DNA of 64,000 nt from an uncultured bacterium. GTDB lineage: Bacteria > Patescibacteriota > Minisyncoccia > Phycocordibacterales > GWA1-40-21. The notes below the pieces were generated by a model. It was not told the DNA's origin. It saw only the letters and a program-made list of their open reading frames with translations, and did not search any database. Where the stretch lies: contig CAWJAN010000001.1 in assembly GCA_963840885.1 (NCBI GenBank), positions 9,669 through 73,668 on the forward strand, written 5' to 3'. The position numbers were made by a program, and so were the translations under genes. Below are positions 3,401 through 48,371 of this stretch, in pieces (the first letter of the stretch is position 1; every line of letters begins with the position of its first letter).

Positions 3401-3852
3401 AGACGATGCCGAGCGTTTCCGCCACCATGGCGGGGCGCGTGTTGCCCTCGACCTCCATGGTCATCTCGCTGGTGATGCGGAAGCCGTTGTCCTCCACCGG
3501 CTCGACCTTGACCAGCTTCTGGCGCAGCCGCACGCGCGCGCCCGCGGGCACCGGCGCGGTGAAGCGCACGCGGTTCGAGCCGTAGTTCAGGCCGCGGCGC
3601 CGCTTCTCGATCTTCATCAAGGTCGGGGCGAGCTGCGGGCAGCAGCGAGAGTGTCAGGTAGCCGTGGGCGATGGTCTTGCCGCCCGGCATCTCCTTCTTG
3701 GCCCGCTCGACGTCCACGTGGATCCACTGGTGGTCGCCGGTGGCGTCCGCGAACTTGTCGATCATCTCCTGGGTCACCGTGAGCCACTCGGACGGACCCA
3801 GCTCCTTGCCCACGTGCTGGAGCAAATCCTGCGGCTTCTCGACCTTGAGCAT
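3393..3852 (-). CDS. MaoC-like (R)-specific enoyl-CoA hydratase/dehydratase, hot-dog fold, one frameshift
   Basis: [34 protein letters not shown] in ORF 3295..3888; C-terminus continues in ORF 3393..3620 ([22 protein letters not shown]). Confidence 0.55.
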
Positions 3853-9072: not shown

Positions 9073-9960
9073 GGCGCCGTCAGCGGAAGAGGTCGATCAG
9101 CTCCTGGAGCGCGACCATCTGGTTGCCCTTGGTGGAGGACGGCACCATGATCAGCGTCTTCACGCCCGCCGCGTACCAGGCCTCGACGCCGTCGCGGACC
9201 TCCGACGGCGCTGCCGTAGAGCGTGACCTGGGAGAGCCAGCGGTCGGACATGAGCGAGGGGATCTTGTCGTCCTGGCCCGCCGCGATGGCCTTGCGGATC
9301 GCCTGCATCTCGTCCTCGAAGCCGGCCTCGATCCAGTAGTTCTGGTAGTTCGGCAGCTTGACGTAGCCGGTCAGGGTGCGGCGGTTCACCGCGGCGGCGG
9401 CGGCGCGGTCGTCGTCGATGCAGGTCGGCACCATGTTGCCGATGAAGAAGTCGGACCCGCTGCGCGCGGCGGCGGGCAGGGCCTCGAGCGACGCGGGCAT
9501 GTGCGAGCGCGCCGCGTTGGCCCACACCGCGCCCTGGGCGATCTCGCCGGCCAGCGCGACCATCTTCTGGCGCAGCGTCGCCAGCACGATCGGCGGCAGC
9601 TCGCCCGCCAGCTTGGCGCCGGCCTGCGAGCTCGCTGCACGAAGCGGCGCATGTCCTCGAGCGGCTTGCCCGGCCTGATCGCCGAGCCGGTCGTGGGTGG
9701 GCCCGTGGCTGACGCCGACGCCGAAGCGGAAGCGGCCGCCCGACGAGCTCGTGGATCAGCGCCGCGGTCTGCGCGTAGTCGTAGGGGTGGCGCGTGTAGA
9801 TGTTGGCGATGCTGGTGCCGAACGGGATCTCCGTGGTGGCGAGCGCGAGCGCCTCGCAGAGGCCGAGCCCGTCGCCGAAGCTCGGGCAGTAGATGCCGGC
9901 GAAGCCCTCCTCCTCGAGGCGCTGGGCCATCTCGACGGTGGCCTTGCGCCGGCCGGGCAC
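9073..9960 (-). CDS. LLM-class flavin-dependent oxidoreductase (luciferase-like), disrupted by frameshifts
   Basis: N-terminal MAQRLEEEGFAGIYCPSFGDGLGLCEALALATTEIPFGTSIANIYTRHP. Middle YVKLPNYQNYWIEAGFEDE. C-terminus ends VALQELIDLFR at a stop at 9073. Confidence 0.5.
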
Positions 9961-20901: not shown

Positions 20902-21795
20902 ATGCCGTGCTCGGCTCGCGCTCCCCCGTCTCCCACGGTGTCGTCGTCGCCGCTCGCGCTCCTCGTCGTCCTCGCGGTCTCCTCCGCGGTCTCGGTGACC
21001 GCGCAGCGGCTGGCCGACGGCCAGGCGCCGAAGTTCACGGTGGATCCGTTCTGGCCGAAGCCGCTGCCCAACCGCTGGCTGCTCGGCCAGGTGGCGGGCG
21101 TGGCGGTCGACCCGCTCGACCACGTGTGGATCGTGCAGCGGCCGCGCACCCTGACCGACGACGAGAAGGGCGCCACGCTCAACCCGCCGCGCAACGAGTG
21201 CTGCGTGCCCGCGCCGCCGGTGATGGAGTTCGACAGCGAGGGCAACCTGCTCCAGGCCTGGGGCGGGCCCGGGCCGGGCTACGACTGGCCGGCCAACGAG
21301 CACGGCATCTTCGTGGACCCGTCCGGCAACGTGTGGCTGGCCGGCAACGGGGAGAAGGACGACCAGATCCTCAAGTTCAGCCGCGACGGCCGGTTCCTGA
21401 TGCAGATCGGCAAGCCGGGCTCGAGCGGCGGCGACGCCGACACCGCGCAACCTCAATCGCCCCGCCGACGTGCGGGTGGACGCGGCGGCCAACGAGCTGT
21501 ACGTGGCGGACGGCTACGCCAACCACCGGGTCATCGTGTTCGACGCGACCACCGGCGCCTACAAGCGCCACTGGGGCGCCAACGGCCGGCCCCCGGGCGA
21601 CGCGAGCGTGAAGCAGTTCCGGAACCCGGTGCACTGCGTGCGCATCGCGACCGACGGGCTCGTCTACGTCTGCGACCGGATGAACAACCGGATCCAGGTC
21701 TTCAAGAAGGACGGCACCTTCGTGAGCGAGTTCGCCCTGGCGATCTCGACGACCGGCAACGGATCGGTGTGGGACCTCGACTTCTCCCGCGACCC
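20902..21795 (+). CDS. secreted NHL-repeat beta-propeller protein, 3' truncated at the composition junction
   Basis: Signal peptide plus repeated VVFDATTG / LVYVCDRMNNRIQVF motifs. The frame runs into low-GC sequence at about 21,795 with no natural stop. Confidence 0.5.
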
Positions 21796-22596
21796 ATATT
21801 TATCGTCCTTATCGGTATTGTAAAATTCCACCCAGCCGCATCTTGCTCCCGGCCAAGGAAATTCTTTTGAGATTCCGCGCATCGCAAGCCCTGGAACGCC
21901 GTCTATCACTTGTGCAAGCTTCCTGTGCTCAACGCCGCCGTAATAAAGATTGGAATATATCTCATCCGATATGACGAATAGGTCGAATTCCCTTGCAATA
22001 TCGACGATTTGTTTCATTATTTCTATCGGAAATACGGCGCCTGTGGGATTGTCCGGATTTACGATTAAGACGGCACATATTTCAGGATGAGCTTTTATTT
22101 TTTCACGCAAATCTTTAAGGTCCGGATACCAATGGTTTTCCGGATCAAGCTTATATGTCATATGCGGCGAGCCTGCATGGGCGGCTTCGGCTGAGGAGTG
22201 AGTGGAATATGCTGGATTCGGCCCTATTACGCGCGAGCCGGGATTGAGATAATTATAAATGGTGGCGATAGCATCGCCAAGGCCGTTGAAGAATAAGATA
22301 TCGTCCGGTTTTATCTGTGCTCCGCCTTCCAGGTTTCTTTCGTATGCTATGTATTCTCTCGTATCCAGAAGTCCTTTTGTAGGCGAATAGCCGAAGCAGG
22401 AATTATCTTTCAAAACAGTGTCGGAAACTATTTTCTTTATCCAGGCCGGCACTTCCTCGCCTTTTGCCACCGGATCGCCGATATTTTCCCAGACGATTTT
22501 AACGCCGGTCTTTTCTATCTTGTTTGCAACATCCACTATCTCGCGGATTTCATAAACGAGCTCATCAGCTCCTGGATGTACTATATTATTTCGCAT
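21796..22596 (-). CDS. class I/II (PLP-dependent) aminotransferase, 3' truncated at the composition junction
   Basis: MRNNIVHPGADEL..NPDNPTGAVF..GLAMRGISKEFPWPGARCGWVEF; only about 265 aa of an expected 390 precede the junction. Confidence 0.7.
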
Positions 22597-39784: not shown

Positions 39785-40124
39785 ATAGATTCATAATGAT
39801 AGGATTTACGACTAAATATATTTCCCAAATAAATAAACAAACAAAAACAAGAAACATTGTTGAGATCACCACCTCTTCTTTTTTCTCATTTTTCCCTTCA
39901 AGTTTCGATTGATATTTTTTTAGTTCTTTATATAAAATATTAAAAAAATTGAATATGATATAGAGTATACCAATAGTTACCAAACTCTTAAGTGCTGTGA
40001 TGCCAGAGATATCCTTAATTGGTAGTGCACAATATGTTTGTGATAGGAATATTACCAAAGATAAACCAGCGGCAACCTCGAATAAAGATTTCATAACCGA
40101 AAATATCAGGAGCATTACTAGCAT
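39771..40124 (-). CDS. small hypothetical membrane protein
   Basis: 117 aa, three TM helices; overlaps the SEC-C gene start by 14 nt and the alternative ORF 40015..40281. Confidence 0.35.
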   Translation of the reverse strand: MLVMLLIFSVMKSLFEVAAGLSLVIFLSQTYCALPIKDISGITALKSLVTIGILYIIFNFFNILYKELKKYQSKLEGKNEKKEEVVISTMFLVFVCLFIWEIYLVVNPIIMNLCVYK

Positions 40125-40319
40125 TATGTTTGATCCCCATTTGGGTTTCTAACCAGTGACCATCTTTACCATCATGGCTCTGGTTTGAGCCTGAAGTATC
40201 CGAGCTTTTACCTCTGACATTTTTATTAAAGAGATCAACAATTTTCTTGATGATCTGCTGACGACTAAGATTTACTGACATGAATAAATACTAGCAAAAA
40301 TAAGAGAATATTGCGACCC

Positions 40320-40823
40320 CTACTTTATATTATCAAGAACAATTTTAGCTTCTGCCAATAGTGATTTTGTAACACTTAAATTCCAAGCTCTCATCGTGGA
40401 GTGCCATCTTTTGAATTTAAGAAATTGTTCCCAAGTTAATTCAATAATTCTTTTAGGTTTATAGTCTTTAAAGATTTGAACAATAATGACATATTCAAAC
40501 TTTTTGTCTGGAATAATATAATCGTCTTTTTCGCCAACACCGTAAAAAACGCCAGTGGTACTACTCGGTTCAGAAATTGTCTTAATACTGTATCTTTCTC
40601 CTTTTCTACTTAAAGCATCTACATTCTGAGTACCTTCGGGAGCAGCTTGAAGATTAGGCATTCCACTTATTGAATTATAAGTTTCAACAGCCAAAAATTC
40701 CCCTCGTTCACCAACGATGTTATTTGTTCTAACTAGGTTACGTTTTTTTAATTCTTGCTGAATATCAGCATATCCTAGCCAAAGCTCTTCATTGTTTAAT
40801 TCATCAGTATTTACTTTTTTCAT
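40320..40823 (-). CDS. hypothetical protein (possible nuclease-like fold)
   Basis: 167 aa; GERGEFLAVETY segment; first gene next to tRNA-Gln; ORF 40015..40281 might be a frameshifted continuation. Confidence 0.4.
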   Translation of the reverse strand: MKKVNTDELNNEELWLGYADIQQELKKRNLVRTNNIVGERGEFLAVETYNSISGMPNLQAAPEGTQNVDALSRKGERYSIKTISEPSSTTGVFYGVGEKDDYIIPDKKFEYVIIVQIFKDYKPKRIIELTWEQFLKFKRWHSTMRAWNLSVTKSLLAEAKIVLDNIK

Positions 40824-40850
40824 AGCTATCTTTGAGCTAGCTCAAACTTG

Positions 40851-40921
40851 CTGGGGGACTTGGATTCGAACCAAGATAACAGCCTTCAAAGGGCCGTGTC
40901 CTACCATTAGACGATCCCCCA
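40851..40921 (-). tRNA. tRNA-Gln (anticodon UUG)
   Basis: Reverse complement folds as a cloverleaf: 7-bp acceptor UGGGGGA/UCCCCCA with U1:A72, T-arm CTTGG-TTCGAAT-CCAAG, anticodon loop CTTTGAA. Confidence 0.75.
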
Positions 40922-40929
40922 ATACTTTG

Positions 40930-40960
40930 GGTTTCGTGTCCTGCCATTAGCCTGCCCCCT
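40930..40960 (-). other. truncated tRNA 5'-half fragment (pseudo-tRNA) immediately upstream of tRNA-Gln
   Basis: Reverse complement GGGGGCAGGCTAATGGCAGGACACGAAACCC parallels the first ~31 nt of the intact tRNA. Confidence 0.5.
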
Positions 40961-41027
40961 AGTGCGGGCAAGCGGCCAGGGACATCACCCAATATAAAAA
41001 CAGCTTAAGAATACTTGAAAAACCTGG

Positions 41028-41417
41028 TTAATTCAAGCCGAAATCAATTAGTTTTGATTTGATATCCGCCAGCTCATTATATGCCGCTGCTTCCCCGCTC
41101 TCCATTTCGGAAATGGCATCATCTATCCTTTTTCTGACGTCATAAAATTTTTCTTTATAATCCAATTTGTTTTTATCGGTTTCCTCCAAATCCCTCATCT
41201 CGGTCAATTCTTTCAATTCATCTTTTGTAATATCAGCTTTATTCAACAGCTCCACAAGCTCATCTTTACTGTAGTTTATGCGGACACCCGGATGTATTCT
41301 TATCAATGCTTCCGTGACAGCTTTTGAGCCACCATAGGACATCAAATCTCCGGATGTTGTCCCTTCCTTTTTGTTTTCTTTGGTTTCCGCGCCTTTAAAC
41401 ATTTCAAATATTCCCAT
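41028..41417 (-). CDS. hypothetical protein
   Basis: 129 aa acidic, coiled-coil-prone ORF. Confidence 0.4.
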   Translation of the reverse strand: MGIFEMFKGAETKENKKEGTTSGDLMSYGGSKAVTEALIRIHPGVRINYSKDELVELLNKADITKDELKELTEMRDLEETDKNKLDYKEKFYDVRKRIDDAISEMESGEAAAYNELADIKSKLIDFGLN

Positions 41418-41545
41418 ATTGATTAAAAGTTAATTGTTAAGCTGATTGCTAACCTGATTATTATACCAGATTATACCAGCCAGGCGCCATCTTCTTAAGA
41501 TTTTATATTAAGTTTAGCAATCTTCCCTCACCATCTTTCCCATAG

Positions 41546-41567
41546 GACACATTCGTGCGAATGTGTC
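41546..41567. promoter_or_regulatory. perfect 22-bp palindrome in a divergent intergenic region (operator candidate)
   Basis: GACACATTCG-TG-CGAATGTGTC between the minus gene 41028..41417 and the plus gene 41720..42847. Confidence 0.4.
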
Positions 41568-41719
41568 ATATATTATCCAAATCTTATTTTTACATAATCT
41601 TGTTTTTTATATAATCTGCATAAGCTATGAGTTTGACAAAACCGGCGCTTATTGTAGCTTTAGAGCAGATTTTGTAAGGTAAAAAACCAATTTGAAAATT
41701 CAGATCGAAGGAGGTTTAA

Positions 41720-42847
41720 ATGAAACTTGTTCTAAGCGACGAGAAGCTAGGAAGCGCAGTTATACCGGTGCAGTGGTGCTTGACGCAGGAAGAAGTGGAA
41801 AGGATCAAGGGCGAAAAAAACGTTCATGTTCTTTTCGTTATTGTGAACAACAAAGTCGAAGTGAAGCATGAGCTCGTTCCGGTGATGCAGATGATGACAT
41901 ATCTTGAGTTCACTCGCCCCGGCAAAAACACGGTTTTCGCTATGCTTGTCTGGAACGAAAAGATGAAAGATCTCAAGAGGTCATATCTTGCGAGGCAAAG
42001 CAATTCAAGATACGAATTCGAATATTATAGCCCAGGAAAGGATGAAATTAAGCTGTGGTATTTAGCTCACGGCTTTGACGACAGCCTTACCAGGGCCGCA
42101 GTGGACGTTTCCGCGGAATTTTTTGCCAAGGATCCATCGGAGCTTGAAAAATGGTGGGTAAATCTTTGGTACGAAACGAAATCGTACGACCAGTGCCAGT
42201 TCCGCAAGCGCCGGATGATTGCATACACGATACAGCCGCCGGCTGTCATCTTGTGGCTCATCTTCACGACGTTCTTGCGCCTTATACTTGCTTTAATCTG
42301 GACATTCATCCTGACTAAAGCCAGAGTTAGGTATGAAGCGATTATCCATCCGTTCAAAAATGATATCGGCGATGTCTACGGGCTCGCCGAGAACAGCAGG
42401 AACTTCTATACGGAAGATAAAAACGGCAAGAAGAAGCCTGCATTCTGGCTTCTGTTCCATCCCGTTCCGATTTTCTTCGGATGGCTTGTCATCTTCCTTA
42501 TGAATATATTCCTTTTGGAGCATTCATTCCTCTGGTGGATGTGCGTCCTAGGAAGCCCTGTTCTTGTTTTCAGTATTGCCGCTGTGGCGCTTCTCGTCTA
42601 TCAGATTTTCATCAAAAGCGGAGAGGGTATCAAAACCCAATTCCAAAATTTTGAGAAAAACTGGAGGATGACGAGGAAGGAACAGCAAGAATTCATGTTG
42701 GAAAGGAATGCCAAAGAGCTCCAGCTGCTTGCATGCAAGAAATTGCCTGTCGCAGCCAGGCTCGAGGCCTTGCCGAGAGAGCGCCAGACGTTTTACCTCA
42801 GGTTCCTCGATTTGAAAGCGAAGGTTTGCAAGCCTTTTGCAAGATAA
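41720..42847 (+). CDS. hypothetical polytopic membrane protein
   Basis: 375 aa; soluble N-terminal region then TM helices; AGGAGG ribosome-binding site upstream. Confidence 0.5.
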   Translation: MKLVLSDEKLGSAVIPVQWCLTQEEVERIKGEKNVHVLFVIVNNKVEVKHELVPVMQMMTYLEFTRPGKNTVFAMLVWNEKMKDLKRSYLARQSNSRYEFEYYSPGKDEIKLWYLAHGFDDSLTRAAVDVSAEFFAKDPSELEKWWVNLWYETKSYDQCQFRKRRMIAYTIQPPAVILWLIFTTFLRLILALIWTFILTKARVRYEAIIHPFKNDIGDVYGLAENSRNFYTEDKNGKKKPAFWLLFHPVPIFFGWLVIFLMNIFLLEHSFLWWMCVLGSPVLVFSIAAVALLVYQIFIKSGEGIKTQFQNFEKNWRMTRKEQQEFMLERNAKELQLLACKKLPVAARLEALPRERQTFYLRFLDLKAKVCKPFAR

Positions 42848-42913
42848 AAGGTTTTTATACAAGGTCCCGCACAGTGTGGGACCTTTTTTATTTGTTATAA
42901 TATTCACCATATC

Positions 42914-43810
42914 ATGCTTGAAATTCCGAATTTAAAAGAGAATATTCTCCTTGCGCCTTATACGACATACAAGATCGGTGGGCCGGCGGATTATTTTGTC
43001 ATTGTGAAAAACAAAGAAGACTTGGCTAATGCGATAACAGAAGCCAGAAAAAACAAAATCCCCTTCTTTTTCCTAGGCACAGGGGCAAATATACTTGTCG
43101 GCGACAAAGGCATACGCGGGCTTGTCATAAAAAATGAGTCAGAAGATATAAAAATAGATAATGATGCCGTGATTGCCGGAAGCGGAGCGACAATAGCTGA
43201 AATCATAAAAAAAACTTCCGATGCCGGTCTTTCCGGCTTCGAGCATTTTGCCGGAATACCGAGCACTGTCGGTGGCGCGCTTTGGCAGAACCTGCATTTT
43301 CTTTCTCCGGACAGAACGAAGACGATTTATATCGATTCAATATTCGAATCCGCCGAGCTTTTGGACGAATCAAATAAAATAATTACAGGCGATAAGGATT
43401 TTTTTGAATTCGGCTATGATACGAGTATCCTTCATAAAAGAAATCTTATCGTGCTTGAAGCGAAATTCCGCCTTGAGAAAAAAGATGCGGCGATTATAAA
43501 AAATCAGGCGGAAGAAAACCTTAAGTGGAGAGAAGAAAGGCAGCCTGCGATAGAAAAATTCCCTTCCTGCGGCTCTGTTTTCAAAAAGATAGAAGGCGTT
43601 GGCGCCGGGCGGCTCATTGAAAAGGCTGGGCTTAAAGGATATAAAATCGGTGGAGCGCAAGTTTCGGAAAAGCACGCAAACTTTATAGTGAATATCGGCA
43701 ATGCAAAAGCCGCTGATGTTTTGGCGATAATAAAACTCATTCAAGAAAAAGTCCTTGAAGAAAGCGGCTATAAACTTGAAACTGAAATAAAGCTCGTTGG
43801 AGAATTTTAG
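42914..43810 (+). CDS. murB: UDP-N-acetylenolpyruvoylglucosamine reductase
   Basis: LAPYTTYKIGGPADYFV FAD-binding N-terminus; GSVFKK C-terminal motif. Confidence 0.85.
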   Translation: MLEIPNLKENILLAPYTTYKIGGPADYFVIVKNKEDLANAITEARKNKIPFFFLGTGANILVGDKGIRGLVIKNESEDIKIDNDAVIAGSGATIAEIIKKTSDAGLSGFEHFAGIPSTVGGALWQNLHFLSPDRTKTIYIDSIFESAELLDESNKIITGDKDFFEFGYDTSILHKRNLIVLEAKFRLEKKDAAIIKNQAEENLKWREERQPAIEKFPSCGSVFKKIEGVGAGRLIEKAGLKGYKIGGAQVSEKHANFIVNIGNAKAADVLAIIKLIQEKVLEESGYKLETEIKLVGEF

Positions 43811-44844
43811 ACGCTTATTATCAGTTTTGAAAGCACCAGCTCTAGCGGCAGCTCAGGAATATAGGCGTTTTTCGCCATATCGTAATACGAGAGCACAGTG
43901 AGCAGTGTTTCTGAATTTATCTTGGAATCTTTTTTAACAGACAATGATTTGAGGAAAGAAAAATCGGTATCGGTAAACTCATCGGCAAGCGTTTCTGCTG
44001 AGCTTTTGAGATTCCTCAGGAGCAATACGGCGCGCATCTTATGAAGAATCATTTTATAATATAAAAGCATGTCTATATCGGCTTCCGCAGATTTTTTCAC
44101 CGCATCGAGACCGAGCTCTATATTGCTTTCATCAATCGCTCTTATATAGTCGTTTACAAGCTCTGATTTTGGCGCGCCTGTCACAAGCTCCACTTCCCTA
44201 GCAGAGATTTTATCGTCTTTTGAAGCGCTCATGACTTTCTGTAAAATGCTTTGCGCGTCGCGGAAAGAACCTTCGGAAATCATGGCTATGAGATCGGCGC
44301 TTGAAGCTTCGAGGGTGAATTTTTCCTTTTTGGCTATCGCCATTATAACTTCTTTCAGCACTTTATGGCTAGGTTTCCTGAATGAAAAAGTCTGGCAGCG
44401 CGAGATGATGGTCTCGGGAATTTTTTCCAGCTCAGTCGTAGCCAGGATAAAAATGACATGCTTCGGCGGCTCTTCGAGAGTTTTCAAAAGAGCATTCCAG
44501 GCGCCTTTCGAAAGCATATGGGCTTCATCGAGGATATAAACCTTGTATTTTGATTCGAAAGGAAGAGAGCTTACGGACTCGTTGAGTTCGCGGATATTAT
44601 CAACACCGGTATTCGAAGCCGCATCGATTTCGGTGATATCATTTTGCGTCGTGCCGATTTCTTTTGCGAAAATCCTGGCGACGCTTGTCTTCCCTGTTCC
44701 GCGCGAGCCTGAAAATATATAAGCATGGGCTATATTGCTAAGCTTGATGGATGATTCAAGGACTTTGACTATCTGCTCCTGGCCGAAAACTTCTTTGAAA
44801 TTTTTCGGGCGGTATTTCCTGTATAAAGCTGTTTCTTCTGGCAT
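43807..44844 (-). CDS. dnaX: DNA polymerase III subunit gamma/tau, short form (AAA+ clamp loader)
   Basis: LYRKYRPKNFKEVFGQEQIV..FSGSRGTGKTSVARIFAKEI. Confidence 0.85.
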   Translation of the reverse strand: MPEETALYRKYRPKNFKEVFGQEQIVKVLESSIKLSNIAHAYIFSGSRGTGKTSVARIFAKEIGTTQNDITEIDAASNTGVDNIRELNESVSSLPFESKYKVYILDEAHMLSKGAWNALLKTLEEPPKHVIFILATTELEKIPETIISRCQTFSFRKPSHKVLKEVIMAIAKKEKFTLEASSADLIAMISEGSFRDAQSILQKVMSASKDDKISAREVELVTGAPKSELVNDYIRAIDESNIELGLDAVKKSAEADIDMLLYYKMILHKMRAVLLLRNLKSSAETLADEFTDTDFSFLKSLSVKKDSKINSETLLTVLSYYDMAKNAYIPELPLELVLSKLIISV

Positions 44845-44867
44845 ACAAAAGATTATACCAGAAATTT

Positions 44868-44907
44868 TTTAAAAAAATAAAAACCCATTCCTTTCCGGAA
44901 TGGGTTT
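44868..44907 (-). terminator. rho-independent terminator (minus strand) 24 nt upstream of the dnaX start
   Basis: Minus strand reads AAACCCATTCCGGAAAGGAATGGGTTT then TTTATTTTTTT. Confidence 0.6.
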
Positions 44908-45205
44908 GTTGGAGCACCGGCCGAAAGTCCTCGATCGGGCGGAGAGACCGCCTTATCAGGTGAACAATAGCCGGTATAAACCGAGCGGTGTTTTGGGTAC
45001 CGTTGTCGGTTCATTGAATTCTGAAGAAAGAACTGCTTGCTTTTTAATATTAGCGATTTTTATCTTTTTTGTCAAAAGAAAAACCGGCCGAGTGCTGAGA
45101 GGTTTGGAATTTACCCAAACAAGCTCAATGAGCACTGGCCGGTTATAATCCGATTGCCGCACGCCGCAGTGGGCACGGATCTGGATATCAAAGAAGAACT
45201 TAAGC
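44908..45205 (-). ncRNA. candidate structured ncRNA of unknown class between a minus-strand promoter and the terminator preceding dnaX
   Basis: No ORF over 80 aa in roughly 1 kb. Promoter-like TTGACT-17-TAGTAT at 45241-45213. Long imperfect hairpin CCGGCCAGTGCTCATTGAGCTTGTTTGGG..CCCAAACCTCTCAGCACTCGGCCGG. Terminator at 44868-44907. Confidence 0.3.
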
Positions 45206-45212
45206 TTTTAAT

Positions 45213-45241
45213 ATACTATCACATGACTATTAATTAGTCAA
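45213..45241 (-). promoter_or_regulatory. sigma70-like promoter on the minus strand
   Basis: -35 TTGACT, 17-bp spacer, -10 TAGTAT. Confidence 0.35.
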
Positions 45242-45245
45242 TATA

Positions 45246-45277
45246 TGTAAATCTGGATAAAAAAAGCCCCTCATCCA
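45246..45277 (-). terminator. rho-independent terminator (minus strand)
   Basis: Minus strand reads GCCCCCATCCATGTGGATGAGGGGC followed by TTTTTTT. Confidence 0.55.
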
Positions 45278-45946
45278 CATGGATGGGGGCTTGCCGTCTC
45301 GCATCACTGGGGTGCGATGGCATTTATGCACGCCTGACTTAAGCACGCTGAGCATTGTCCCTTAGCGGGGGCTCTGGTTTTGCAGCTCTAGGCCGCTAGT
45401 GCAAGTCTGACGTACAGGTATGACGAAGTGATTGTATTTTTCCTAGCCCGATGGCCTCGAAACTATCTGAGCGTTCTTCCCTTTCAGAAAGATCTCTTTC
45501 GGGTGGCTGAGCCTGTTATGACTCCTTTTCTTGGTCTTTTGGATTGAACTTCTTTGTTTTTATCTGAAGTTTTTTCTTCTTCGTTGTCGTGTTCCAAAGG
45601 AATTTTGTTTTTCCCTTTCGTTAAATTATTCCTTTGGAAGAGCGTTAAACGGTAGGACCTCTGATATTCAAGGAATCAATCCTTTCTTTTTATCAGGTGC
45701 GACCCGGAGATTTTGTATTTGCCAAATCAATGGCAATCTCTGGCCGCTCGGCCGCGGATGATCACGTCGTCATGGTGTGAAAGAACATCTGATTCGGAGC
45801 CCTTATCATGAGCGATCCTCCTCAATAAAATTCAGGCAACTTCGCCTGTTCTAGAAGTCTATCATACTATTAATTTTTGTCAAGTCATTATGATATGCAA
45901 CAAAAAAGCCGTTTCTTGCAGGAAACGGCGCATGGTCTGGCAATAT

Positions 45947-46330
45947 TTATTTAATTGTAGCGGTGCAGGTAACAGTGCCCTTGCCGCTTTCGCTCGCCAA
46001 TGAAGAATTGTCATCTTCTGAAAAATCAATTCTTACGGTTGTGAAGGCATTCACACCGCTCATATAGGAGATCGTTAAAGAAACGATGTCTCCCGGAGCA
46101 AGATACTGGTTACTCAGAGAAATCGGCAGAATTCCCTGATTAAGCTGGCTGCCGTTTCCGGATATGTCGATATGCTGGCCGTTACGTCTGTACGAGATCG
46201 TCACGGCAGCACCATCTGAACCAGAAACAGCCCATCCGAATGCGGGATACGGCTTTGTCGGGCTCGAACACGAACCTAGCAATGCCATTGAAACAAGAGA
46301 CAAGCAAACCGCAAACAGAAATTTTTTCAT
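45947..46330 (-). CDS. lipoprotein of unknown function
   Basis: Lipobox signal peptide MKKFLFAVCLSLVSMALLGSCSS. Confidence 0.5.
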   Translation of the reverse strand: MKKFLFAVCLSLVSMALLGSCSSPTKPYPAFGWAVSGSDGAAVTISYRRNGQHIDISGNGSQLNQGILPISLSNQYLAPGDIVSLTISYMSGVNAFTTVRIDFSEDDNSSLASESGKGTVTCTATIK

Positions 46331-46458
46331 ATAAAGCCTCCTTCAACTTCCTCTGCAAAATGCACCGGTTTTCTTGTCAAGGAAACCAATGCCACATCTA
46401 AAAATATTTTACTGCGTCAAATTATATTGTCAATGACATTCTATGCCGGCGGAATATC

Positions 46459-47445
46459 TTATTTAACAGAGTCTTTTAGGAGCTTTATCGCTTCTTTTAC
46501 CGTTTGCGTTTCCATCATCTTTATCCTGAGTTCTTTTGCGCCTTCAAACTCCCCCACATATGCTTTGAAATGCTTTTTCATGACGGCAAAATTCCTGTGC
46601 CCTTCCATATATTTTTCAAAAAGTTTCAGATGCTCTATAAGCGCTTTGAGCTTTTCTTCCCTTGCCGGCGGAGATTTTTTCTTTGAATCGAAAAACCAAG
46701 GATTGCCGAAGATGCCGCGGCCAATCATTATTCCGTCAAAGCCGCTCTCCCGCGCTTTTTCCCTGCCATCTTCCAGATTTTGTATATCTCCGTTTGCGAT
46801 AAGAACCACGTCTTTATTGAACTCCCGACAGACTTTAACTATATCTTTTGCGAGTTCCCAATGAGCCGGCACCACGGACATTTCCTTCCTCGTCCTCAAA
46901 TGTATGGAAAGAGCCGAAATGCCTTCCTTGAGAAGTTCCGGAAGCCATTTGTCGTATTCTATCTTATGAAAGCCTATTCTTGTTTTTACTGATATAGGAA
47001 GATTTGGCGCGCCTTCTTTCGCGGCTCGGATAATTTCCCTGGCCAACTTAGGATTTGTTATGAGCTTAACTCCGGCATTCTGCTTTATTACCGTCCTGTC
47101 AGGGCATCCCATATTTATATCTATCCCGTCAAAGCCGAGATTGGATATGTATTTGCAGGCGATTTTTATATTTTCAGGAGTCGAGCTGAATATCTGGGCG
47201 ATAATCGGCTTTTCCTTTTTTGAAAACTCAAGCATGAACGAAAGCCTCTTTCTTCCTTCTTTGGAAGCAAGACCGTCGGCAGAAATGAATTCAGTCCAAA
47301 AGACATCGGGCCCGCCTCCAGGTTTTCCATGCCTCGAATATTTGGCGATATTCTGCCTGAAAGCTGTATCGGTGACATCTGCCATCGGAGCCAAGCAGAA
47401 AAACGGCTTCTTTTCGTCTTTGATTTTTTGCCAGAAATTTTTCAC
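46459..47445 (-). CDS. dus: tRNA-dihydrouridine synthase
   Basis: FCLAPMADVTDTAFR..GFDGIDINMGCPDRTVIKQNAG..SVKTRIG. Confidence 0.8.
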   Translation of the reverse strand: MKNFWQKIKDEKKPFFCLAPMADVTDTAFRQNIAKYSRHGKPGGGPDVFWTEFISADGLASKEGRKRLSFMLEFSKKEKPIIAQIFSSTPENIKIACKYISNLGFDGIDINMGCPDRTVIKQNAGVKLITNPKLAREIIRAAKEGAPNLPISVKTRIGFHKIEYDKWLPELLKEGISALSIHLRTRKEMSVVPAHWELAKDIVKVCREFNKDVVLIANGDIQNLEDGREKARESGFDGIMIGRGIFGNPWFFDSKKKSPPAREEKLKALIEHLKLFEKYMEGHRNFAVMKKHFKAYVGEFEGAKELRIKMMETQTVKEAIKLLKDSVK

Positions 47446-47533
47446 CTAAGAAATATAGCATTTTAAGCGTATTTGACAAATTTAATACCACCAGCTAAAA
47501 TATTTCAGGATTTTCCAACTCAGGAGGCTTCAA

Positions 47534-47728
47534 ATGGCACACGAAATCGAAGAGCTGAAAACTATTGTAATAAAGAAGACCTCAGAGATGAGCTATGAGG
47601 CTTATCTCCGGACCGACACTGAAAAGAAGGATATTGCTATCGGCAGGTCGTCTGCCGAGGCGCTGGGCAAGTATATCCAGACGTATCATGATAAGTTCAA
47701 GCTCATCGGCATATTTGAAACAAGCTAA
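47534..47728 (+). CDS. small hypothetical protein
   Basis: 64 aa, ribosome-binding site AGGAGG upstream. Confidence 0.4.
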   Translation: MAHEIEELKTIVIKKTSEMSYEAYLRTDTEKKDIAIGRSSAEALGKYIQTYHDKFKLIGIFETS

Positions 47729-47813
47729 GGCCGATCATTTTTCACAAAAGCCGCTTCGCAAAAGGCGGCTTTTTTTATTTTATTTTAAATGCTATTGTTT
47801 TTACTAATAAATA

Positions 47814-48371
47814 ATGACGAACAAAAAGATAAAAGAATCCCCCGTGCCAATAGTCCAAAAGGACAATAAAGTTTTGAGGCAGGTTTCCGCTGAAATCCCG
47901 AAAGACAAGATAAAAAGCGCAGAAATCAAAAAAATAATTTCCGATATGGAGGCCGCCATGGATTCCCAGGTGGATGCTGTAGCCATAGCGGCCATACAGA
48001 TAGGCCGACCAGTCCGCCTTTTTATCATTTCAAAAAGGGCTTTCAATCTTACCGGCAAGGCAAAAGACAAAGATGATATGGTTTTTATAAACCCTAAAAT
48101 AATCAAGCAATCCAAAAAGAAGCAGCTTCTCGAAGAAGGATGCCTTTCCGTCCGATATGTTTATGGCGAAGTTCCGCGCGCTGAAAAAACAACAATAGAG
48201 GCGTTTGACGAAAGCGGCAAGAAATTCACCCGCGGCTTTTCCGGCCTCTTATCTCAGATAGTCCAGCACGAGACAGACCACCTAAACGGCGGGCTTTTCA
48301 CCGATAAAGCGAAGCACACCATTGAAATTTCCAGGGATGAATATGAAAAAAGCATTTCGGAAACAAAGTAG
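47814..48371 (+). CDS. def: peptide deformylase (copy 2)
   Basis: Motifs IGRPVRLFII (G-x-G-hAAxQ region), EEGCLSV, HETDHLNG. Confidence 0.8.
   Translation: MTNKKIKESPVPIVQKDNKVLRQVSAEIPKDKIKSAEIKKIISDMEAAMDSQVDAVAIAAIQIGRPVRLFIISKRAFNLTGKAKDKDDMVFINPKIIKQSKKKQLLEEGCLSVRYVYGEVPRAEKTTIEAFDESGKKFTRGFSGLLSQIVQHETDHLNGGLFTDKAKHTIEISRDEYEKSISETK

Follow-up and report, generated by a model that had tools for sequence, protein, structure and literature searches.

Three candidate small-RNA genes in the gene-free gap upstream of a predicted leaderless dnaX in a CPR bacterium

In Firmicutes, ffs, the gene for the signal recognition particle (SRP) RNA, occurs in synteny with dnaX. Low-GC Gram-positive bacteria also carry small RNAs (sRNAs) with their own promoter, an intrinsic terminator, and an unpaired C/U-rich seed that pairs with Shine-Dalgarno (SD) regions, and in Bacillus the 5′ ends of mRNAs can be stabilized by SD-like sequences (cryIIIA STAB-SD), by a ribosome stalled on the ermC leader, or by 5′ stem-loops. 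For the candidate phyla radiation (CPR, or Patescibacteria), whose genomes are small and among the most compact known, a full-text literature search returned no description of regulatory RNAs, and nothing specific on leaderless genes and noncoding RNAs (ncRNAs). Here, we analyzed a 64,000-nt stretch of DNA from an uncultured patescibacterium (positions 9,669 to 73,668 of contig CAWJAN010000001.1, GenBank assembly GCA_963840885.1; hereafter “the window”, whose coordinates are used throughout), and focused on a gap of ~1.1 kb (44845–45946, minus strand) between dnaX and an open reading frame (ORF) of 127 amino acids (aa). Gene callers run on the contig of origin called no conventional gene in this gap, and a first-pass annotation made from the sequence had proposed that it holds candidate structured ncRNAs. 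We find that the gap is organized into three units, T1 to T3, best described as candidate bacterial sRNA genes that belong to no known RNA family.

We first read the minus strand and searched it for consensus promoters and terminators, using shuffled versions of the interval 43500–47000 as a comparison. Promoter-like sites were found 17 times in this interval (5.4 ± 2.2 in shuffles) and terminator-like sites 9 times (4.0 ± 2.2 in shuffles). Within the gap, these signals order into three promoter/terminator pairs with no conventional ORF between them:

45856–45883, minus strand: T1 promoter TTGACA-16-TGaTAGACT, with an extended −10 TG (signal scan)
45888–45861, minus strand: alternative, overlapping T1 promoter ATGACT-16-TATGAT (signal scan)
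45259–45850, minus strand: T1 predicted transcript of ~590 nt, its 5′ hairpin followed by two tiny ORFs, then by an A-rich middle and a 3′ domain of higher GC content
45833–45848, minus strand: T1 5′ stem-loop (CAGGCGAAGUUGCCUG), followed by AAUUUUAUUG (signal scan and fold)
45259–45290, minus strand: T1 predicted intrinsic terminator, a bulged stem GCCCCCAUCCAUGUGGAUGAGGGGC (45290–45266) followed by U7 (45265–45259)
45213–45241, minus strand: T2 promoter TTGACT-17-TAGTAT, with an upstream TG (signal scan)
45076–45207, minus strand: T2, ~130 nt, with a single-stranded CU-rich leader (AAGUUCUUCUUUGAUAUCC), hairpin P1 (45181–45147), and hairpin P2 (45144–45082) doubling as terminator
45047–45075, minus strand: T3 promoter TTGACA-17-TAATAT (signal scan)
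44871–45041, minus strand: T3, ~170 nt, with a CU-rich leader, P1 (45014–44976), P2 (44975–44916, ACCGGC/GCCGGU closure), a linker, and a terminator
44871–44907, minus strand: T3 predicted intrinsic terminator, an 11-bp stem with a 5-nt loop, followed by UUAUUUUUUU (signal scan)
45902–45929, minus strand: terminator of the upstream 127-aa ORF, the island’s upstream boundary (signal scan)

Judging from these signals, each unit would have a near-consensus sigma-70 promoter, with extended −10 elements noted, and its own intrinsic terminator, and with no conventional ORF in between the three would fit stand-alone sRNA genes. This refines the first-pass annotation, which had placed two terminators and one promoter here. 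All three signals exist, including the T3 terminator (stem 44907–44881, T-run to 44871) and the T2 promoter with its upstream TG, but one terminator had been placed 15–30 nt off (at 45246–45277, when the stem and U-run of T1 lie at 45290–45259), and a third terminator and two further promoters had been missed. Because the missed signals include the 63-nt hairpin terminator of T2 (45144–45082 plus U-run) and the promoter of T3, what had been described as a single transcript of ~300 nt resolves into two units of ~130 and ~170 nt. Similarly, the GC-rich segment noted before is real (52–55% GC around 45250–45470, ending at the upstream terminator), but it is the 3′ domain of the ~590-nt T1 and not a separate unit. 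The promoter regions of T1 and T2 are alike beyond their hexamers, sharing AATTAATAGT..ATG..ATAG, which suggests that these cassettes multiply through local duplication. Gap promoters of related loci share the pattern TTGACA(A/G)AAAT...TGnTAnnnT.

Predicted folding supports the view of these units as structured RNAs. The whole T1 unit folded at −186 kcal/mol (z −5.7), with none of 100 shuffles as good, and whole-unit z scores were −5.1 for T2 and −5.5 for T3. The body of T3 remained strongly structured once its terminator was removed (z −3.95; 0 of 200 shuffles as good), compared to a mean of about +0.15 for eight coding controls. Otherwise, the excess is more modest outside the terminators: four 150-nt tiles of T1 gave z −1.7, −2.9, −0.2, and −2.2, the tile at −0.2 not being beyond chance, and the 5′ part of T2 alone gave z −0.95. 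Overall, the proposal of candidate structured ncRNAs holds in general, since each unit lies between a promoter and a terminator and its fold is far more stable than those of shuffled sequences.

T2 and T3 can be read from their sequences as tandem paralogues of one small family. In the closest contig, L018 (related loci are referred to by L numbers), in which DnaX is 84% identical and 386 nt of upstream flank are available, a single unit, L018u, lies directly 5′ of dnaX. T2, T3, and L018u have a common architecture composed of a CU-rich single-stranded leader (AGUUCUUCUUUGAUAUCC, AGUUCUUUCUUCAG, and AGUCCUUUUGAUAUUC in this family), a hairpin P1 closed by (A/U)CCG...CGG(U/A), and a hairpin P2 of 59, 58, and 60 nt, respectively, with an invariant ACCGGC/GCCGGU closure. 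Counting pairs by script across the three sequences, we identified three with compensatory or wobble changes: those flanking the P2 closure (A-U / U.G / G-C on one side, C-G / U.G / U-A on the other) and the third pair of P1 (U-A / A-U / U-A). MAFFT did not reproduce this structural alignment of T2, T3, and L018u. The three units also vary in how they end, as in T2 the U-run directly follows P2, which is then the terminator itself, while in T3 and L018u a linker sets P2 apart from a distinct terminator. With their promoters and terminators, lengths of 130–170 nt, unpaired pyrimidine-rich 5′ stretches, stable hairpins, and tandem arrangement, T2 and T3 resemble the trans-acting sRNAs of low-GC Gram-positive bacteria (RsaE/RoxS, RNAIII hairpins). 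Unlike these, they show no sequence or covariance-model similarity to Rfam sRNAs, their seed is CU-rich rather than C-rich, and the family is so far known from two genomes.

The predicted 5′ end of T1 is built like a translated leader, i.e., a stem-loop and a strong SD followed by an ORF of 15 codons (sORF1) and then one of 8 codons (sORF2):

45809–45762, minus strand: sORF1, with a strong SD GAGGAGGA at 45823–45816 and, 6 nt further, an AUG; encodes MIRAPNQMFFHTMTT-stop (feature 45762–45823)
45803–45792, minus strand: R-A-P-N codons of sORF1 (MIRAPNQ...)
45671–45645, minus strand: sORF2, with a weak SD AAGGA at 45684–45680 and a TTG start; encodes MNIRGPTV-stop (feature 45645–45684)

The earlier statement that this region lacks protein-coding potential is therefore correct for conventional genes but overlooks these two SD-preceded ORFs. 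Both encode I-R-(A/G)-P followed by Asn or Thr, and the resulting peptides (15 and 8 aa) are hydrophilic, with the motif at residues 3–6. A counterpart of sORF1 in L050 reads MHIRAGPF..., with synonymous changes only and an in-frame GGU inside the motif, and a counterpart of sORF2 in L039 reads ...YIRGPTK-stop. All differences within motif codons are synonymous (AGG/AGA, GCU/GCA, AGA/CGA, ACC/ACU), and the single indel (GGU) is in frame, which argues for selection on the peptide, and not on the RNA alone, at these few codons. To gauge how unusual the motif is, we collected 298 distinct SD-preceded ORFs of 2–45 codons from both strands of all CPR loci, or 271 after nested ORFs were removed. R[AG]G?P occurred in only 4 of the 298, all on the sense strand of the gap upstream of dnaX, and IR[AG]G?P was observed 4 times in the 271 ORFs when 0.10 would be expected, a count reached in none of 2000 shuffles. 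Analogous 5′ hairpins open the long units of L039, L042, L047, L019B, and L046. A long-range helix sequestering the sORF1 stop codon did not exceed shuffles in any of 7 RNAs, and a 25-nt, 84%-identity blast hint linking T1 to tRNA-Gln and tRNA-Asn was not upheld (pairing z −0.8 and +0.6).

This motif is specifically alike to the arrest core of SecM and RAPP-type peptides (SecM ...GIRAGP; ApcA RAPG; ApdA/ApdP RAPP/RGPP), with the same R-A-P or R-G-P core and an Ile in front of it as in SecM; the L050 peptide even includes IRAGP, a pentapeptide identical to that of SecM. In published mutagenesis, R-A-P proved highly specific in causing arrest, its Arg being irreplaceable, Ala-to-Gly changes being permissive or enhancing, and RAGP forming the core of SecM (PMC12992588). 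As A-site residues supporting the arrest of ApcA and ApdP, Asn and Thr come directly after Pro and Cys, while ApdA and ApdP need Pro for stable arrest (PMC7897499). As encoded, sORF1 and sORF2 combine the R-(A/G)-P core with such an arrest-permissive A-site residue, Asn or Thr, both of which rank high among the non-Pro residues tried for ApcA and ApdP (PMC7897499); this differs from the strict A-site Pro requirement of ApdA/ApdP. In other respects, the likeness ends. The ORFs found here span 8–28 codons with the motif 2–8 residues from the N-terminus, stalling on them is putative, and the T1 peptides have neither signal peptide nor transmembrane segment, nor is the motif near the C-terminus of a secretory or membrane protein. 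Further, we found no SD-preceded ORF other than the two tiny ones before the T1 terminator, and hence no regulated gene downstream. Membership in the SecM/RAPP family thus fails on two defining features, protein localization and a regulated gene.

Two other comparisons can be drawn for T1. As in the Bacillus 5′ stabilizers mentioned above, T1 and the long units of its relatives open with a stem-loop, behind which comes a very strong SD (AAGGAGGUG-like), except that in T1 real start codons stand behind the SD; in the long units of some relatives, the SD has no start codon at normal distance. As in dual-function sRNAs (SR1/SR1P, RNAIII/hld, SgrS/SgrT), a structured, regulatory-type RNA is combined with a small ORF, whereas the peptides of those RNAs are conserved and functional and T1 keeps only a motif of 4–5 residues. 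Alternatively, the products of the region could be the peptides themselves, the RNAs being mRNAs with long structured untranslated regions from a cluster of small proteins missed by gene callers. Strong SDs (GAGGAGGA in T1, AAGGAGGT in 6 of 13 relatives’ gaps) with correctly spaced start codons would fit this explanation, as would the synonymous-only variation of the IR[AG]P codons and an in-frame 6-nt indel separating a small ORF of L051 from its L046 equivalent. However, ORF lengths (2–42 codons) are not conserved between relatives, one small ORF is read in different frames in L046 and L051 owing to a poly-A slip, conservation is limited to the 4–5-residue motif, and SD-preceded ORFs leave ~85% of T1 uncovered and are lacking altogether in T2 and T3. 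We therefore regard micro-proteins as an unlikely primary product of this region.

We next compared the gap to its counterparts in related genomes. Among species representatives, the best relatives of the window DnaX are Candidatus Paceibacterota and Nomurabacteria metagenome-assembled genomes (51–58% identity), and many metagenomic relatives reach 73–84% identity. A gene-free gap of ~500–1100 nt, mostly between dus and dnaX, lies 5′ of dnaX in L019, L021, L037, L039, L042, L044, L046, L047, and L051, and the sole exception among relatives with enough flank is L029, in which dus abuts dnaX directly. The words most widely shared across these gaps (TTGACAAA, GCCGGTTTTT, AAGGAGGT, and TGTTATAAT) are expression signals: promoters, terminators, ribosome-binding sites, and the dnaX promoter. 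The gaps thus hold cassettes of one kind throughout, in a mosaic that changes rapidly, with the sequence itself not conserved. Local similarities occur nonetheless. A 77-nt block is common to L019A (L019 2435–2510) and L039 3785–3860 (blastn E 9e-9), in otherwise dissimilar long gap RNAs; this block (...GGAACCAAGUACCnUAAAAnGUnCCCACCCA...CCAG..GCAA..GGUAAA) is absent from the window and matched no Rfam family. Likewise, L037 (~3640–3780) and L044 (~2120–2260) have in common a ~90-nt hairpin RNA with its own promoter and terminator (86% identity), in which a stem pair changes from C-G to U.G.

Constraint on such gaps can be assessed in the strain pair L046 (1876–2500) and L051 (715–1354), i.e., in a different lineage than the window. 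Their dus–dnaX gaps are 93.4% identical, while identity at third codon positions is 80% for dnaX and 90% for dus. Double changes from U-A to C-G occur in two hairpins, and an A-U to G.U change in one; among the tiny ORFs, one differs by an in-frame 6-nt indel and another is altered by a poly-A tract of different length. This combination of conservation and compensatory changes indicates purifying selection on island-type RNAs in at least one lineage. Together with the recognizable relative of one unit at the same position in the closest contig, it also upholds the proposal of candidate structured ncRNAs. These data bear on a second explanation, namely that the region is functionless debris of gene decay, duplication, and insertions in a recombination-prone spot, with a fold excess owed mostly to terminators. 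Consistent with debris, the content has almost fully turned over between relatives with DnaX 75–84% identical, the promoters of T1 and T2 look duplicated, and the 5′ part of T2 and one T1 tile are not structured beyond chance. On the other hand, the gap persists at ~500–1100 nt in compact CPR genomes, in all relatives with enough flank except L029; that of L046/L051 is more conserved than synonymous sites and includes compensatory changes; and the three units keep complete, correctly ordered, near-consensus promoter/terminator pairs. In genomes this compact, an island of 0.5–1.1 kb that stays free of genes and carries several promoters close to consensus probably does not lie idle, and we consider debris improbable.

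Taken together, the best explanation of the region as a whole, to which we give even chances, is a lineage-specific island of three autonomous sRNA genes between the dus side and a leaderless dnaX, acting through a mechanism that we propose by analogy. Its support comes from the ordered signals, the fold excess, the lack of any known family, the kinship of T2, T3, and L018u, the synonymous-only variation of the motif, and the constraint seen in the strain pair. Under this proposal, ribosomes would load on the 5′ end of T1 and pause or stall at the RAP-N and RGP-T motifs; a ribosome parked there could protect, stabilize, or refold the RNA, as stalled ribosomes and SD-like 5′ stabilizers do in low-GC Gram-positives and Bacillus; and the long 3′ domain of T1 would be the effector. 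T2 and T3 may act in trans, with their unpaired CU-rich leaders pairing to purine-rich ribosome-binding or start regions. Possible targets were evaluated among 52 start regions. The T3 leader paired best with the start region of the 127-aa ORF (−21.0 kcal/mol, rank 1 of 52, next best −14.7), for which the T2 leader ranked 2 of 52. We take this predicted pairing of both leaders at the adjacent ribosome-binding site as no more than a lead.

Several observations weigh against this reading. Transcription of T1 to T3 is something we infer from consensus signals, and the fold excess of T2 is essentially its terminator hairpin. The T2/T3 family has three members with covariation on few pairs, too few for a statistical claim. 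For T1, no full-length alignable homologue was found: blastn returned short blocks, and an E-INS-i alignment of 8 long units was unconvincing. The four occurrences of the motif are two orthologous pairs and thus two independent events rather than four, the tiny ORFs of L019, L042, L046, and L047 do not carry it, and known RAPP/SecM peptides are longer secretory or membrane proteins encoded upstream of a regulated gene, neither of which is true here. Lastly, pairings within the island did not improve on shuffles (z 0.06 and −2.1 for the T2 and T3 leaders, respectively, paired with T1), and those with dnaX were similarly unremarkable: when its first 24 nt were paired with the gap as a whole, z was about −1, with the T2 leader as the best site, and dnaX ranked 7 for the T2 leader and 15 for the T3 leader among the 52 start regions. 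We rejected dnaX as a pairing target in the window on these values, although L037 shows such pairing strongly.

The position of the island directly upstream of dnaX raises the question of a cis-acting role, which depends on how dnaX is transcribed. One further feature is relevant here:

44852–44860, minus strand: extended −10 element TGgTATAAT of dnaX, 7 nt 5′ of the ATG at 44844

An element TGnTATAAT is present 5–7 nt 5′ of the dnaX ATG in 12 of 16 loci, whatever lies upstream (besides the window, L018, L020, L021, L039, L042, L044, L046, L047, L048, L050, and L051), while L022, L037, and L052 have GGGTAA directly 5′ of the ATG instead. Moreover, dnaX has no SD, and other genes of the same genome carry GGAGG-type sites. 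Because of this conserved element near the ATG and the missing SD, we predict that dnaX mRNA is leaderless and independently transcribed in this clade. The first-pass annotation was mistaken in seeing no room for a separate dnaX promoter, and the co-transcription with a small RNA that it suggested is not supported: the promoter element sits just before the ATG, T3 ends in a strong terminator 26 nt 5′ of that ATG, and dnaX has no SD that would serve a read-through transcript.

These features make it very unlikely, in our view, that T3, or T2 and T3 together, form a cis-acting leader (attenuator or riboswitch) co-transcribed with dnaX. The order of promoter, structured domain, terminator, and gene in T3, 26 nt from the dnaX ATG, is that of an attenuator, and the gaps of L037, L018, and L042 are complementary to the 5′ end of their own dnaX (z −5.3, −2.55, and −2.4). 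Yet no antiterminator alternative to the T3 terminator was found by eye, riboswitch and leader families gave no match at E ≤ 10, the conserved TGnTATAAT accompanies dnaX in 12 of 16 loci regardless of upstream content, and in the window, pairing between the gap and the 5′ end of dnaX stays at chance level (z about −1). A read-through transcript would also be poorly translated, since dnaX lacks an SD. In L037 (3290–3323), three blocks of the gap sequence UUCUGUA..AGAGCGG..CUGCCAU can pair with the opening 24 nt of the dnaX of that locus, AUG included (−26 kcal/mol, z −5.3, 0 of 100 shuffles); this pairing is weaker in L018 and L042, and there is none in the window.

The presence of tiny ORFs beside small RNAs is also reminiscent of a type I toxin–antitoxin-like module, in which T1 would encode toxic peptides and T2/T3 would be antitoxin sRNAs pairing with T1. 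T1 does resemble a structured mRNA with tiny ORFs, and inverted repeats tie the T2/T3 leaders to T1 45568–45595 (12–22 nt, 73–92% complementary). However, the peptides are hydrophilic and, at 8–15 aa, far too short compared to hydrophobic membrane toxins of 20–60 aa, the duplex energy is no better than shuffles for T2 and borderline for T3 (z values above), and the units have no antisense overlap, so that we view such a module as highly improbable.

A similarly low likelihood applies to one of the units being a highly divergent housekeeping RNA (SRP, 6S, RNase P, or tmRNA) missed by Rfam in CPR. The synteny of ffs and dnaX in Firmicutes, the very strong promoters, and a T3 hairpin that by eye superficially resembles SRP helix 8 would all be compatible with it. 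At gathering score, however, Rfam models identified only two tRNAs in the whole 64-kb window and, in 19 related loci, tRNAs only, with zero known RNAs in the corresponding gaps; at E ≤ 10, the 1.4 kb around the gap (44700–46100) yielded noise only, with no SRP, RNase P, 6S, tmRNA, riboswitch, or leader. This agrees with the first pass, which could not match SRP, RNase P, 6S, or tmRNA by eye, and ARAGORN likewise found no tmRNA (tRNA-like domain). The apical loop of T3 P2 (UCUCU, flanked by GGCGG/CCGCC) has neither the GNRA tetraloop nor the AGCA of SRP helix 8, and this apex is wholly different in L018u, i.e., its apical half is not conserved even though L018 DnaX is 84% identical. Beyond short blocks, blastn found no similarity to T1–T3 among 50 related loci with DnaX 51–84% identical, and such lack of conservation among relatives with DnaX 75–84% identical is incompatible with a housekeeping RNA. 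We rejected an SRP RNA identity (Bacteria_small_SRP / Bacteria_large_SRP) on the models, the helix 8 motifs, and conservation. Accordingly, the analogy to the ffs–dnaX arrangement that had been drawn for this locus is not supported: as in Firmicutes, a small structured RNA gene lies immediately 5′ of dnaX on the same strand, but here this RNA is not SRP, is not conserved, and is terminated before a dnaX predicted to have its own leaderless promoter.

Beyond the island, the window is heterogeneous. GC content falls abruptly from 62–75% to 28–50% within ~100–150 nt near 21,700–21,900 (window 1–21800 vs 21800–64000), and two unrelated organisms seem to have contributed DNA to the window, through either a chimeric contig or the concatenation of contigs from a contaminated bin. 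The low-GC part is that of an ultra-small CPR bacterium (Paceibacteria), and the RNA island lies wholly inside it. On the minus strand, dnaX (345 aa; 43807–44844) is located downstream of the island and is not part of its RNAs, and dus (46459–47445) lies upstream of the 127-aa ORF (45947–46330). This ORF has a lipoprotein-like N-terminus (MKKFLFAVCLSLVSMALLGSCSS), its RNA folds unusually well for a coding sequence (z −2.7 and −3.1), it has no relative but itself among 5.8 billion non-redundant clusters, and it is missing from the dus–dnaX gap in all relatives examined. No gap ORF matched Pfam or NCBIfam when all were searched, and an exhaustive phmmer search with the longest (82 aa, plus strand, 44900–45148) returned a single match, P0122, considered spurious as it sums weak repeats of ~6 bits per matched stretch. 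P0122 itself (1159 aa) consists of a 70-aa unit (210 nt) repeated perfectly in tandem 16.5 times, as would be expected if a small circular or repeated element had been assembled into a concatemer. No tandem or CRISPR/TIGR-like repeats were found in the gap. A cumulative GC-skew minimum and a change in gene orientation at ~40–48 kb indicate that a replication origin may lie somewhere near 40000–48000, but that the gap itself is such an origin, or part of one, is barely tenable: it has only two DnaA-box-like sites, each with one mismatch and one of them belonging to the T1 terminator stem, such sites are absent from 10 of 13 relatives’ gaps, no DnaA-box cluster was seen there or in relatives, and neither dnaA nor dnaN was seen nearby.

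Overall, the observation behind the first-pass annotation is partly confirmed and its interpretation partly supported, and the annotation of this locus can be corrected: dnaX of this clade is predicted to be leaderless and separately transcribed, and the ffs–dnaX operon is absent here. The outcome is a set of three delimited candidate RNA genes, two of which (T2 and T3) make up a small family with L018u. A bolder and, as it stands, doubtful extension is that T1 and its counterparts in related Paceibacteria represent a new class of ribosome-gated riboregulator, i.e., a long structured RNA with minimal 5′ arrest ORFs in which the stalled ribosome is the signal or stabilizer. If so, M-I-R-A-P-N, M-N-I-R-G-P-T, and M-H-I-R-A-G-P would be the SecM/RAPP core cut to a few codons, detached from the secretion-monitoring protein and from a downstream gene; the stall could report EF-P or ABCF activity, or the supply of Asn- or Thr-tRNA, and would control the fate of a noncoding effector domain, with T2 and T3 being part of the same fast-evolving island. 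As a motif of tiny 5′ ORFs, I-R-A/G-P with Asn or Thr behind it is testable, and would carry the RAPP/SecM principle over to minimal ORFs beyond the control of protein localization.

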